64,000 bases of DNA from an uncultured delta proteobacterium (lineage in GTDB: Bacteria > Myxococcota_A > Polyangia > Polyangiales > Polyangiaceae): positions 320,001-384,000 of the forward strand of contig CAVQUB010000021.1 in the NCBI GenBank assembly GCA_963716725.1. The letters run 5' to 3'. Positions 26,494-29,744 of the stretch are shown piece after piece. How positions within the stretch are numbered: position 1 is the stretch's first letter; each line of letters opens with the position of its first letter. A model generated the notes under the pieces. The model was not told where the DNA came from, ran no database searches, and saw only the letters and a list, made by a program, of their open reading frames with translations. A program made the position numbers and the translations under genes.

Positions 26494-26976
26494 ATGAAGC
26501 CCTCAGTGACCGAACCGGGCTTCTGGATGCGCATCGCGACGGATGGCATCGCGGCCTCGAGCGAGGCGGTATTCCCGGAGAACGACCTCGGCGCCCCGGA
26601 TTGGAAATCCACCGAGATGGTGGCCCGCACCCTCGAGTACCTCGACGAGCTGCCGCCAAGACCGCGACGGCTGCTGGTGCTGTTGTTCGTCTTCGTCGAG
26701 CTCGCGGCCGTGGTTCTGCTGCTGCGATTCACCCGATTTTCACGCCTGCCGGTGGTGCGCCGCACGCGCGCTATCCGCGCTTGGCGCCGCTCGCCCTTGC
26801 TCGTGGTGCGCGTGCTCGGCGACTCGCTCAAGGCGACCACCACCATGATGTTCATGTCGCATCCGCTCGTGATCGAGCACCTAGGTGAGTACCGCGCGAA
26901 CGAACGCCCCCTCGACCGCGTGAAGATCACGGCGCGCCCCGAGGCGCTCTCATCTCCGAGAGACGAGGCACCGTGA
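26494..26976 (+). CDS. hypothetical protein, putative partner subunit of the GMC oxidoreductase
   Basis: RFSRLP...R..A...W..S pattern typical of proteins preceding GMC enzymes; GTGA overlap with the GMC gene. Confidence 0.7.
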   Translation: MKPSVTEPGFWMRIATDGIAASSEAVFPENDLGAPDWKSTEMVARTLEYLDELPPRPRRLLVLLFVFVELAAVVLLLRFTRFSRLPVVRRTRAIRAWRRSPLLVVRVLGDSLKATTTMMFMSHPLVIEHLGEYRANERPLDRVKITARPEALSSPRDEAP

Positions 26977-28493
26977 GGCACGGCTTCGACGACGTGCGAG
27001 GCGGCTTCGACGTCGAGGCCGACGTGGTCGTGGTGGGCTCGGGCCCCGGAGGCGCCGTGGCCGCGGACAACCTCGCGCGCGCGGGCATGAAGGTCGTGGT
27101 GGTCGAGGCCGGGTCCGAGGTGCGGCCCGAAGACATGGTGCGGGACAGCCCGCGCTTCATGGCCCGTCACTACTGGGAGGGCGGCCTGCGCGTGATCCTC
27201 GGCACGGTCCCCAGCCCGTCGATGCACGGGCGCTGCCTGGGCGGCGGCAGCGTGGTTAACTCCGCCATCATGCTGCCCCTGCCCGGTTGGGTGCGGCAAG
27301 AGTGGCGTGACGAGAGCGGCGTCGCTCACTTCGACGGGCCGGAGCTCGACGCGGCTTACGCTCGCGTGTTCGCCCGTTGTCGCGTCTCACCGACGCCGAT
27401 GACGGTGTTCGGCCGGCGCAACCGCCTGGTGCGCGACGCCATCGAGGGCGTCGTGGGCGAGAAGGGAGGCGGGCTGCCGCGCGCGGTGGTCGACTGTGAA
27501 GGCAGCTCCGACTGCCTGACCGGCTGCGCCGGCGGGCGAAAGCAGTCGGTCGATCGCGTGTACCTGCCCACGGCGGAGGCGGCTGGCGCGGAGGTCTACA
27601 CGCACAGCCAAGTCGACCGCGTTCTGATCGAGGGCAAGCGGGCGGTGGGCGTGGAAGGCGACGTGATCGAGGTCCCGGGTTGGCAGAAGCGCGGGCGCTT
27701 CCGGGTGCGCGCCAAGATGGTGGTGCTGGCGGCCGGCACCATGAACACGCCGGTGCTCTTGCAGAAGAGTGGCGTCAACCCACGCGGCCTGGTGGGCGCG
27801 ACGCTCTTCGCCCACGTGGGCGGCGGGATCGTCGGCATCATGGACGAGGTCGTCGATCCCTGGGTGGGTGCCACCCAGGGCTGGGGCGCCATCTCGAAGG
27901 AGATCCGCGGCCTCAAGTACGAAGCACTGTGGGCCTCGCCCGGCCTGTTGATGGTGCGCTGGGGCGACGTCGGTCGGCGCTTCGTCGAGCGACTCGACGA
28001 GGTGAAACACGCGGTCGTGGTCGCGCTGGTCTACCGCGGCGACGTGCACGGCACGGTCAAGGCGACACGAAGCGGAGAGCCCAGCAGTCGGCTTTGGATC
28101 CCGGAGAAGAACGTGGCGCCGGTGATGCGCGGCATGAAGAACGCCGCCGATGCACTGCTCTCCCTCGGCGCTCGCTACGTGCACACCGGACTGGTGAGCG
28201 TGGTCGACGAGATGAGGAACGCGCGGGACACCGAGAGCCTGCTGTCGCCGAGGGTCAAAGCCAAGCACATGGCGATGACGATGAACCACACCTTCGGATC
28301 CTGCCGCATGACCGCCGATGACCGCGGGCCGGTCGATCCGGACGGCAAGCTGCGCGGGCTCGAGGGGCTGTATGTCTGCGACGCGAGCGTCTTCCCGAGC
28401 CCGAGCGCCGTGAACCCGCAGGCCACCATCATGGCCTTGTCCGACATCACGTCCCGCAAGCTGGGCGAGCTTTCGCTGTCCGAAGCGCCCTAG
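26973..28493 (+). CDS. GMC family oxidoreductase
   Basis: VVVGSGPGG, GRCLGGGSVVN, CxxxxxCxxGC, LAAG...TP, H.FGSCRM, DASVFP...VNP. Confidence 0.92.
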   Translation: MRHGFDDVRGGFDVEADVVVVGSGPGGAVAADNLARAGMKVVVVEAGSEVRPEDMVRDSPRFMARHYWEGGLRVILGTVPSPSMHGRCLGGGSVVNSAIMLPLPGWVRQEWRDESGVAHFDGPELDAAYARVFARCRVSPTPMTVFGRRNRLVRDAIEGVVGEKGGGLPRAVVDCEGSSDCLTGCAGGRKQSVDRVYLPTAEAAGAEVYTHSQVDRVLIEGKRAVGVEGDVIEVPGWQKRGRFRVRAKMVVLAAGTMNTPVLLQKSGVNPRGLVGATLFAHVGGGIVGIMDEVVDPWVGATQGWGAISKEIRGLKYEALWASPGLLMVRWGDVGRRFVERLDEVKHAVVVALVYRGDVHGTVKATRSGEPSSRLWIPEKNVAPVMRGMKNAADALLSLGARYVHTGLVSVVDEMRNARDTESLLSPRVKAKHMAMTMNHTFGSCRMTADDRGPVDPDGKLRGLEGLYVCDASVFPSPSAVNPQATIMALSDITSRKLGELSLSEAP

Positions 28494-28558
28494 TGCCGCG
28501 CGGCAGAAGTTTCGCTGGTTTCTTTTCCGTGTGCGTGTCGTCGGTGTAGTGGGGTGAC

Positions 28559-29215
28559 ATGATCGACTACAGCGCGTTCGCGGGCCGAGCGCACGGTGGT
28601 CGTCCGACGGTTCCGCTCGCGCTGAGGGCTGAAGAGCGCGCGCGGATCGAGGAGGCGTTGCGACCCGCCAGGGCGGAGCAGCGGCTGGTTCGTCGGGCGC
28701 AGGCCGTGTTGATGATGGCGGACGGAGTGCCTGCGACGGACATCGCCCGGCTCCTCGGGGTGCACGTGCGCACGGTGGACGACTGGCGCAAGCGCTTCGA
28801 CTGCGCGGCACCTAGCGAGAGACTGGCGGACGCCCCGCGCTCGGGACGGCCGCCCTCTCTCTCTCGGACACCGTAGCGGCTCGAGTAGAAGCAGAAGCGT
28901 GTCGACCGCCGAGCGACGTCGGCGTGCCCGTCACGCACTGGTCAGCGTCGTTGCTTGGCGTGCACGTTCGCGCGCAAGGAATTCAGATCAGCGACCGGTC
29001 GGTGGGCCGCATACTCAAGGATGCTGACCTGCAACCGCATCGGCAACAAATGTACCTGACTTCGCACGACGACGAGTTCAGGGGGAAGCGCGACGACGTG
29101 CTGCGCGTCTACTACGAGACGCCAAAGAAGGAGCACATCGTGTGCGTCGACGAGAAGACCGGCATCCAGGCGCTCGAACGCCGCTACGCTGACATTCCGA
29201 TGGTGGCCGGACAGC
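28559..29215 (+). pseudogene. IS630 transposase, orfA (HTH) plus -1-frame orfB truncated after the first catalytic Asp
   Basis: orfA RAQAVL..ADG....IARLLG....TV..WRKRF...LADAPRSGRP; the frame change is at (CT)5 28855-28864; orfB THWS..LL, SVGRIL, VCVDEKTGIQALER; no second D or E region follows. Confidence 0.85.
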
Positions 29216-29248
29216 AACTGTTTCGGAGTGAGGCCCGACCACACGGGG

Positions 29249-29744
29249 ATGGCACAGGAAGGGCGAAAGCTCGGAAGATTTGGGGATGGGACGGACGAGG
29301 TGATCGGTGCGCTGATCGAGGTGCATCGGCATCTCGGTCCAGGGCTGATGGAATCCGCATATGAGGCCTGTCTATCTGCCGAGCTGTCCGAACGACGGCT
29401 CAAGTTCGAGCGGCAGCGACCGCTACCAATCCGCTACAAAGGCGTACACCTTGACTGCGCCTATCGCCTCGACCTGGTCGCTTTCAGATCGTATCCTCCT
29501 GGAGCTCAAGGCGGTCGAGCGGCTGCTCCCGATTTACGAAGCGCAGGTCATCACCTATCTGCGCCTTTCGCGGTTGCCCGTCGGCCTGCTCGTCAACTTC
29601 AACGTGACCGCGCTCAGAAATGGCCTGCGGAGGCTAACGCCTGACCACCCCAAATCCTTCCGCTCTTCCGCCCTTCCTGTGAGAGCCCAAATGAGCGCAG
29701 GTCCCAGAGGCGAATCCACTCGAACTTCGGCCGCGCGGCACTAG
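29249..29744 (+). CDS. GxxExxY family (PD-(D/E)XK-like) protein, apparent frameshift at TTT 29482-29484
   Basis: IGALIEVHRHLGPGLMESAYEACL, YRLDLV, ELKAVE, AQVITYLRL...GLLVNFN; removing one T joins the two track ORFs. Confidence 0.88.
29253..29681. repeat. ~33-bp imperfect inverted repeats bracketing the GxxExxY gene (29253-29285 and 29648-29681)
   Basis: CACAGGAAGGGCGAAAGCTCGGAAG-ATTTGGGG vs reverse complement CACAGGAAGGGCGGAAGAGCGGAAGGATTTGGGG. Confidence 0.85.

Follow-up and report, generated by a model that had tools for sequence, protein, structure and literature searches.

What do the inverted repeats around a small nuclease-like gene serve, and to which genetic element do they belong? 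This question is raised by a locus in the window analysed here, a stretch of 64,000 nucleotides of contig CAVQUB010000021.1 (positions 320,001 to 384,000 of the forward strand) from an uncultured delta proteobacterium of the Polyangiaceae. In this window, a gene of the GxxExxY family is situated within a transposable element of the IS630 family, and its conserved domain is enclosed by two purine-rich arms. According to an initial annotation, the arms could either pair into a long stem that loops out the open reading frame (ORF), as in intervening sequences (IVS), or represent the recognition ends of a mobile unit of about 430 bp that uses the encoded nuclease. Our analysis shows that they are conserved hairpin arms belonging to the GxxExxY gene cassette. 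For the picture as a whole, somewhat more speaks in favour than against: a GxxExxY hairpin cassette which at this locus is nested in other elements and hitch-hikes with them, and whose arms likely form a cis-acting site.

Inverted arms at the ends of the GxxExxY domain

A repeat search of the window delineates two arms of 44 nt each (Table 1), which are 77% complementary and separated by 355 nt. The 33-nt core described in the initial annotation lies inside these arms and corresponds to their best-paired stretch. Scored by local alignment at fixed geometry, the arm pair reaches a value of 47, whereas the maximum amounts to 28 in 1000 shuffles and to 31 at 1956 random window positions of the same geometry, none of which (0/1956) attains 47. 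The inverted repeats are thus real. In single-strand folding the stem is closed on both strands, with z-scores of -4.5 for the plus and -3.0 for the minus strand, and on either strand none of 100 shuffles folds as well. The arms bracket the PF13366 domain, one at each end, with the probable start codon (ATG, 29249) located within the left arm. Moreover, they are unlike the IS630 terminal repeats; the coordinates therefore bear out both the position at the domain ends and the independence from the transposon termini that had been proposed for them. Searching the whole window against Rfam at gathering thresholds yielded no match, neither to rRNA nor to any other family.

The cassette as passenger of an IS630-family element

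The genome to which the window belongs (G000) is a draft of 35 contigs with a completeness of 84%. Positions within the carrier element (el) refer to a full copy of 1737 bp (G000:C20:66876-68612), which was mapped onto this genome by BLAST and whose orfB encodes an IS630-type DDE transposase (NF033545, 177.7 bits at a cut-off of 100). The cassette is present in 32 copies with 94-100% identity. Five of these reside in full elements of about 1737 bp, four lack el 727-1205 like the copy in the window, nine lack el 405-1070, and one each lacks el 311-806 and el 61-1191; six further copies, which resemble miniature inverted-repeat transposable elements (MITE-like), lack el 132-1233, and the remaining six IS630 copies are truncated or rearranged.

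The cassette is retained in all 32 copies, no IS630 left end in the genome occurs without a cassette joined to it, and on the right each copy runs up to the IS630 end or to the point where that end is truncated. According to a plain string test, TA is found on both flanks in 22 of the 27 two-ended copies; the other five, in which the end words vary, failed the match. IS630 derivatives without the cassette were not found in the genome, the 12 stray 14-mer end matches all being mismatched and unpaired. Likewise, neither a stand-alone cassette nor a gene-less hairpin was found. When up to 6 mismatches in 33-34 nt are allowed, the genome contains 34 matches to the left and 33 to the right arm, all of them inside the 32 IS630-borne copies, and the solo repeats envisaged in the initial annotation are hence absent from it. 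Assuming uniform breakpoints, the chance of such cassette retention is of the order of 0.01-0.1 by our rough arithmetic on the map coordinates.

Since all 32 copies are situated inside IS630 derivatives and the gene is disrupted in 29 of them, it can be concluded that the arms do not serve as ends for transposition in this genome and that spread does not require the nuclease. As the 32-fold spread was that of a passenger, the copy number of the cassette is not evidence of self-mobility.

A nested unit with IS4-family-type ends

In a second genome of the same genus (G006, 73% complete), the cassette region (el 1179-1700) occurs with about 80% identity outside IS630. Here it forms stand-alone units of 528 bp in which the ORF is intact and the 21-bp terminal repeats are perfect. 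The target duplications are perfect over 9 bp in two of the units (L061 and L069), match at 8 of 9 positions in L132 and comprise 9-10 bp in L139 and only 7 bp in L131. Unit ends and 9-bp duplications are located 58 nt and 20 nt outside the arms. About 15 further copies in G006 are internally deleted or one-ended, and the same ORF deletion is found at different sites; these deleted forms were therefore moved in trans. The corresponding unit of the window's own genome spans el 1172-1699. Both of its ends are decayed, a direct repeat matching at 8 of 9 positions lies on its flanks, and the stop codon of the transposase is found within its left part. In the copy present in the window, the relic of the left unit end falls in the deleted part.

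The end motif of the unit was detected in 58 of 121 genomes of the family, with at most one match per genome in a reversed-pattern control. It is also carried by four elements of 1249-1309 bp. The two of these that were scanned for ORFs (L166 and L167) encode IS4-family transposases (NF033591, 229 and 192 bits, cut-off 152). Perfect 9-bp duplications are displayed by the other two (L168 and L169) and by the short units L170-L173, and none were seen in L166 and L167. Words of the arms are present in none of these four autonomous elements (0/4). Among 24 end matches in the 73% complete genome G006, a full-length insertion sequence with the exact 21-bp ends of the unit was not found.

In other genomes, the closest IS630 relatives (68% identity) are free of the unit, and the alignment of their transposases with the one considered here stops at ..SWAES. 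In these relatives the ORF runs through the right terminal repeat to a stop codon provided by the CTAG target, and the same reading, ending in ..ESTRTSAARH-stop, persists at the right end of the present element. Because the unit-free relatives read through the right end in this way, it can be concluded that the unit entered the last transposase codons by an IS4-type insertion, after which the composite spread. Relative to the empty IS630 relative, the boundary between presence and absence coincides with the outer ends of the 528-bp unit, and not with the inverted repeats.

The course of events comprises three steps. A GxxExxY hairpin cassette was carried in a 528-bp non-autonomous unit with IS4-family-type ends, which are now decayed; this unit inserted into the last codons of the IS630 transposase gene, leaving a 9-bp duplication as relic; and the composite IS630 element then multiplied, with the window holding one internally deleted copy (28493-29741).

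Two other public studies contain, in their DNA contigs, the same deletion joints as the window's own genome. Of the 24 public runs listed, 20 have words of the element, 16 of them at least half of the words, and these runs come from 10 studies. The public read evidence consists of assembled contigs only, in which RNA ends are not visible; among these assembled contigs none joined across the cassette was found. Two contigs of RNA library X17 show a match of at least 99% to the element and are uninformative on transcription, strand and ends. In RNA library X19 a single contig, 90-95% alike, spans the cassette, and its loose ends resemble IS4-type ends. This similarity hints at the existence of closer stand-alone units.

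A cassette protein 89% identical to that of the window's own genome, together with IS4-type ends, was observed in the record of a Phycisphaerales metagenome-assembled genome (MAG; locus L080). Its occurrence in another phylum may reflect either horizontal transfer or a binning error.

The GxxExxY gene and its product

The window gene matches PF13366 (PDDEXK_3) with 72.8 and 50.1 bits in two frames (cut-off 22) and TIGR04256 (GxxExxY) with 76.5 and 50.9 bits, likewise in two frames (cut-off 35). The profile match is divided, positions 4-67 being found in ORF 29228-29644 and positions 68-116 in the overlapping ORF 29361-29744 of a different frame. A +1 frameshift near 29483, which is absent from the initial annotation, lies between the D and the E-x-K of the nuclease motif and breaks the gene, so that an intact frame is missing in the window. 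Intact alleles elsewhere in the genome reach 133.7-141.9 bits in the profile search, and the D ... E-x-K nuclease motif is present in the three intact copies and in relatives. At two loci from Verrucomicrobiaceae MAGs of one lineage (L102 and L117), LLVR replaces the E-x-K motif; both are without a bracket.

Within the genome, the intact frame with the canonical sequence ..RLDLVVEDRILLELK.. is confined to 3 of the 32 copies, and 29 are disrupted. The same +1 change splits 21 of the 32. A further insertion of 11 nt in the six MITE-like copies and one of 2 nt in two copies reopen the downstream frame, but the catalytic aspartate stays out of frame. Restoration of the frame was considered as a sign of selection. 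However, the 11-nt insertion (six copies), the 2-nt insertion (two copies) and the canonical VVED allele (three copies) are independent events, the first two of which exclude the catalytic aspartate, and they were not counted in favour of function. The copies that multiplied are those with dead genes, the five full-length elements among them. Multiplication of copies with a broken or deleted nuclease gene contradicts the proposal that the cassette is moved by its own nuclease.

Between lineages, dN/dS values (ratio of non-synonymous to synonymous changes) of 0.06-0.21 were obtained for the GxxExxY protein, which indicates that the protein is functional in the lineage. An AF2 model of the intact protein (pLDDT 90.1, pTM 0.83) displays a restriction-endonuclease-like fold. 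Best structural matches found by VIA-align are 3ijm (Z 7.7), Cas4 SSO0001 (7.4), BpuSI (7.4) and Hjc (6.2), and the top 50 matches are, judged by their entry titles, mostly nucleases of the PD-(D/E)XK type. The predicted fold thus places the protein in the PD-(D/E)XK superfamily, whereas a subfamily cannot be named because all structural Z values are below 8. A sequence search of the PDB with the intact protein gave no match at E values up to 1, and Foldseek gave none against the PDB at E <= 0.001, its weak rows being PD-(D/E)XK nucleases.

Conservation of the arms in homologous loci

A search with the intact protein as query gave 51 loci, and the 20 with a near-full-length match, which come from other genomes in several phyla, were tested for brackets; as the loci are related, counts across them are not independent. 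An inverted bracket of its own, beating 200 of 200 shuffles, is present in 15 of the 20 loci. Seven of the 15 belong to the window's own clade; in two of these the outer IS4-type end scores top and the inner arms are also present. The other eight originate from Acidobacteria, Chloroflexota, Anaerolineae, Dongiaceae, a deltaproteobacterial MAG, an unclassified MAG and Neolewinella, and every one of them carries an arm sequence of its own. In the other phyla, inserts of 437-588 bp have no recognisable feature beyond the arms, and IS4 or IS630 ends are absent. Arm length is 27-78 nt, duplex energies lie between -42 and -109 kcal/mol, and the arms are mostly composed of purine-rich units at 8-9-nt spacing, with clear periodicity in 7 of 16 arms tested.

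Covariation was analysed in the own clade (11 sequences, 33 stem pairs). Here, pairing is found in 89.5% of the cells compared with at most 57% when the partner is slid. Four stem pairs are changed on both sides, in two lineages, and 12 of the 33 pairs are invariant; the covariation score is reached by 3 of 500 shuffles. With 15 of 20 loci bracketed, this degree of pairing and the four double changes, the interpretation of the arms as a selected pairing feature tied to the gene stands.

Between lineages, the p-distance of the arms amounts to 0.12-0.18 compared with a proportion of synonymous differences (pS) of 0.41-0.64 in the gene, i.e. the arms evolve 3-5 times more slowly than synonymous sites. 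Third codon positions vary in 13 of 23 columns of the arms, in contrast to 40 of 46 (87%) in the domain, and the left arm displays no coding pattern. Third positions, the comparison of p-distance with pS and the invariant pairs together indicate that nucleotide sequence as well as pairing of the arms is under constraint. A strand bias is not detectable, neither in G-U pairs (32 sense versus 39 antisense) nor in summed energies (-1076 versus -1079 kcal/mol); by locus, 7 favour the sense and 10 the antisense strand.

At locus L070 (1500-1660) of another genome of the genus (G003), three direct tandem repeats of 60 nt were observed, each with an arm-like word of 35 nt. These words resemble the right arm's complement to about 91%, and neither a GxxExxY ORF nor an inverted partner is found nearby.

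Rearrangements at the base of the stem

At el 1231-1234, 4-7 nt ahead of the first base of the arm, lies an end of each of five independent rearrangements. These are the MITE-like class, G000:C2:111950, G000:C11:120644, G000:C14:36286-36500 and one contig of an RNA library. The clustering of breakage at the base of the stem is taken as a sign that, in vivo, the hairpin has an effect at the level of DNA.

At G000:C14:36286-36500, the left arm is found three times in tandem, each followed by the same unrelated spacer of 35 nt (74-nt period), before a normal cassette follows. Two genomes show partial tandem duplications, arisen independently, that affect the cassette's 3' part together with the right arm (G000:C4:85110-85330 and L069:1986-2144).

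Possible functions of the arms

Conservation beyond pairing, lineage-specific repeated units, equal stability on both strands and DNA breakage at the stem base point to a sequence-specific cis site; the arms would have been kept in sequence and pairing for the cassette's own biology. Of the ways in which such a site could operate, the most likely is that the encoded nuclease recognises or cleaves it in a sequence-specific manner, in folded or in duplex DNA. This is a serious possibility, to which we nevertheless give a little less credence than to its opposite. Alongside or instead, the arms may pair in RNA into a stem that RNase III cuts, comparable to the situation in 23S rRNA IVS with an ORF, a role we consider tentative and rather doubtful. 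Both modes of action are compatible with each other.

Several observations weigh against the overall picture. The genome of the window shows no sign of self-movement by the cassette, and the closest studied relative in architecture, the IVS of Coxiella burnetii, acts at the RNA level, according to the available part of PMC4990558. Five of the 20 homologous loci lack a full bracket, two of them (L087 and L098) being truncated with one arm and three (L099, L102 and L117) without any. An intact GxxExxY paralog in the own genome (G000:C14:2120-2464) is likewise not bracketed, with a score of 18 compared with a shuffle maximum of 28. The periodicity of the window's own arms is degenerate (309 of 500 shuffles are as good), and covariation is modest, since the number of double-changed pairs (four pairs, two lineages) is reached by 115 of 500 shuffles. 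Furthermore, breakpoints at the stem base can result from replication slippage alone.

Among the alternatives, the best surviving one regards the cassette as a purely RNA-level element of the IVS type. A stem cut by RNase III would loop out the ORF and render the insertion harmless to the IS630 transposase mRNA, and the nuclease would be cargo. In line with this idea, the layout matches that of the C. burnetii IVS, as far as described in the accessible portion of PMC4990558, the ATG lies inside the stem, the plus strand folds well (z -4.5), and the position of the unit leaves the transposase ORF usable, with its stop 14 nt before the stem. However, neither G-U pairs nor duplex energies display a strand bias, and the arm sequence is conserved beyond the needs of pairing, 12 of 33 pairs being invariant in comparison with 87% variable third positions in the gene. 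Moreover, purifying selection on the protein (dN/dS 0.06-0.21) argues against mere cargo in the lineage, and the cassette is located outside rRNA and gives no Rfam match. Altogether, we consider this explanation unlikely, though worth retaining.

Operation of the cassette as a self-mobile unit of about 430 bp, with the arms as recognition ends for excision and insertion by the encoded nuclease, would agree with the arms being the outermost feature of the 437-588 bp inserts in other phyla, with the three intact gene copies and with the rearrangement ends clustered at the stem base. For the genome of the window, however, this reading is already contradicted. All 34 left- and 33 right-arm matches belong to IS630-borne copies that end at the IS630 right end or its truncation, ORF-less and frameshifted copies multiplied, and the units of G006 have IS4-type ends and 9-bp duplications 58 and 20 nt beyond the arms. 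The boundaries of movement are IS630 ends (TA/CTAG) in this genome and 21-bp ends of IS4 type (9-bp duplications) in G006, rather than the arms, and self-movement in this genome is most improbable.

A similarly remote place is assigned to the idea that the arms are cis elements of the carrier transposons, unrelated to the GxxExxY gene, such as sub-terminal transposase-binding repeats of the IS4-type unit or an IS630 enhancer. Retention of the cassette region in all six IS630 deletion classes and the right arm abutting the IS4-type right end would fit such a role. Against it stand the absence of arm words from the four autonomous IS4-family elements with the same end motif (0/4), the arms of GxxExxY genes in other phyla, which are found without IS4 or IS630 ends, and the existence of IS630 relatives without the unit.

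Finally, a chance or neutral palindrome, for which nothing speaks beyond the high G+C content of the genome, is refuted by the positional controls (score 47 versus a maximum of 31 at 1956 positions), the homologous brackets and the pairing statistics, the arms being conserved across lineages with near-saturated synonymous sites.

Comparison with known systems

Elements of the IS630 family are characterized by a DDE transposase, terminal inverted repeats, TA duplication at CTAG and internally deleted multi-copy forms. The carrier shares its IS630 transposase, terminal repeats, TA at CTAG and deleted multi-copy forms with passenger-carrying IS630 elements and their MITE-like derivatives. Unlike a usual IS630 passenger, however, its cargo is a nested IS4-type unit with a hairpin cassette, which replaced the last transposase codons and was lost by no derivative. 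Mobile insertion cassettes such as MIC231 are non-autonomous derivatives of IS4-family elements carrying a gene other than a transposase. The 528-bp unit resembles them in its IS4-type ends, 9-bp duplication, lack of a transposase, small unrelated gene and evident mobilisation in trans. It differs in that the cargo is a GxxExxY hairpin cassette and that in G006 no pair of ends with the spacing of a full insertion sequence was found.

In architecture, the cassette agrees with ORF-bearing 23S rRNA IVS, as had been suggested in the initial annotation. The helix-45 IVS of C. burnetii, in the part of PMC4990558 available, comprises 428 nt with a terminal stem of 28 bp containing one mismatch and one bulge, and encloses an S23p ORF. 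Purine-rich tandem heptamers of variable number are located just upstream of the ORF start. The ORF is decaying, RNase III cuts the element out in vitro and the element is regarded as selfish (PMC4990558, same part). To the extent covered by that source, both have a unit of about 430-450 nt, and in both a terminal stem of about 28-44 bp is interrupted by a few mismatches or a bulge. Their 5' arm consists of purine-rich short repeats in tandem, variable in number, which directly precede or overlap the start of the ORF, and the loop contains an ORF of about 115-130 codons that is often decaying. In contrast, the ORF of the cassette encodes a GxxExxY protein of PD-(D/E)XK fold instead of the four-helix bundle S23p (PF05635), with no other Pfam match. 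The cassette is situated in an IS630 transposon and not in helix 25 or 45 of 23S rRNA, and its excision from the transcript by RNase III is putative. A sense-strand G-U bias is absent.

A further parallel exists to repetitive extragenic palindromes (REP/REPIN) and their associated tyrosine transposases (RAYT). As described in the accessible part of PMC3116915, there too an enzyme gene is flanked by an inverted short repeat that can fold in single-stranded DNA or mRNA and whose sequence is lineage-specific and tied to the enzyme. However, the enzyme of the cassette has a PD-(D/E)XK fold (PF13366) and is not a tyrosine transposase of the HUH Y1 type, dispersed gene-less repeats are absent from the genome of the window, and the arms are arrays of 8-9-nt units instead of a single REP palindrome.

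Among the papers listed for GxxExxY, PF13366 or TIGR04256 and for IVS, supplements excluded, no description of a cassette of gene plus arms was found. Two candidate papers were set aside: PMC8934634, which mentions GxxExxY, is unrelated, and PMC2672173, on IVS with transposase ORFs, is not relevant, as far as the available text of both goes. In conclusion, the locus is a hairpin cassette of the IVS type with a nuclease ORF, located outside rRNA and doubly nested in conventional transposons, a context that is new. By analogy, it is best read as a decaying passenger built like the ORF-bearing 23S rRNA IVS.

Features of the element in the window

Positions of all features are compiled in Table 1.

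Table 1. Map of the IS630-family element and its nested cassette (positions in the window).
Feature	Position	Strand	Remarks
Left TA target duplication copy	28491-28492	unstranded	Inside CTAG 28490-28493
IS630-family element, internally deleted non-autonomous copy	28493-29741	+	BLAST with full copy; without el 727-1205 of the 1737-bp form
IS630 left terminal inverted repeat	28493-28522	+	
Transposase orfA, helix-turn-helix (HTH) part	28559-28876	+	HTH_23, HTH_29 and HTH_28 matches; ends after C(CT)5 tract
Transposase orfB, 5' part	28880-29215	+	Cut by 479-bp internal deletion, junction 29214/29215
Left spacer of nested 528-bp unit	29216-29245	+	In full copies the transposase ORF stops here, TGA 29229-29231; several rearrangement ends at about 29239-29242
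Left hairpin arm	29246-29289	+	Inverted repeat of the initial annotation; holds ATG at 29249
GxxExxY (PF13366) pseudogene	29249-29633	+	N part 29249-29482; +1 frameshift near 29483; C part 29484-29633 and onward in other frame
Right hairpin arm	29645-29688	+	Inverted repeat of the initial annotation
Decayed right terminal repeat of nested IS4-type unit	29687-29707	+	Alignment with same-genus L061 and L069
9-bp target duplication relic	29708-29716	+	From entry of the 528-bp unit into IS630; two copies match 8/9 in full copy
IS630 right terminal inverted repeat	29712-29741	+	Also original last transposase codons (..ESTRTSAARH, stop from CTAG target)
Right TA target duplication copy	29742-29743	unstranded	Inside CTAG 29741-29744

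At the left border, the CTAG target (28490-28493) overlaps the stop codon (TAG, 28491-28493) of an upstream ORF of 506 amino acids (26973-28493), and this stop codon is kept. At the boundary between orfA and orfB, a C(CT)n tract is located (28846-28860). C(CT)5 splits the transposase in 14 of 16 pattern-matched copies; the other two have (CT)4, which fuses both frames, as seen in the ORF 1017-1502 of L016. All five full-length copies have the two-frame form. Such variation suggests either programmed frameshifting or an on/off switch that operates by slippage. The fused ORF of L016 (1017-1502; G000:C20:93866) belongs to the nine copies lacking el 405-1070. In this (CT)4 copy, the deletion brings the N-terminal HTH part of the transposase into frame with approximately the last 50 residues, and the resulting ORF spans 161 amino acids; other pattern-matched copies of this class carry (CT)5 and their frames differ. 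The 161-residue fusion could be a DNA-binding competitor of the transposase.

Implications

The cassette joins two poorly understood kinds of element, GxxExxY genes and rRNA intervening sequences. The PF13366/GxxExxY family is large and distributed over multiple phyla, with many transfers, and its function is listed as 'Unknown' in the available part of PMC3424549; the conserved arms offer a concrete DNA or RNA substrate for testing it. The locus separates movement from the arms, as the cassette spread 32-fold as a passenger of IS630 after an earlier ride on an IS4-type unit. With intact, frameshifted and internally re-framed alleles together in one genome, it represents a natural experiment. 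For annotation, it follows that the 32 'GxxExxY' calls made in this genome belong to a single IS family and that most of them are pseudogenes.

On a wider scale, GxxExxY genes with inverted arrays of short repeats may constitute a distinct, unpublished class of selfish cassettes whose nuclease recognises its own, lineage-specific hairpin arms, a suggestion put forward with considerable reserve. If it is true, nuclease and arms together would be a counterpart of REP/RAYT in function, built like an rRNA IVS and using transposons as vehicles, and both the retention of the cassette in all IS630 deletion derivatives and the accumulation of breakpoints at the stem would be traces, either of the nuclease and hairpin at work or of an advantage in cis for the carrier.

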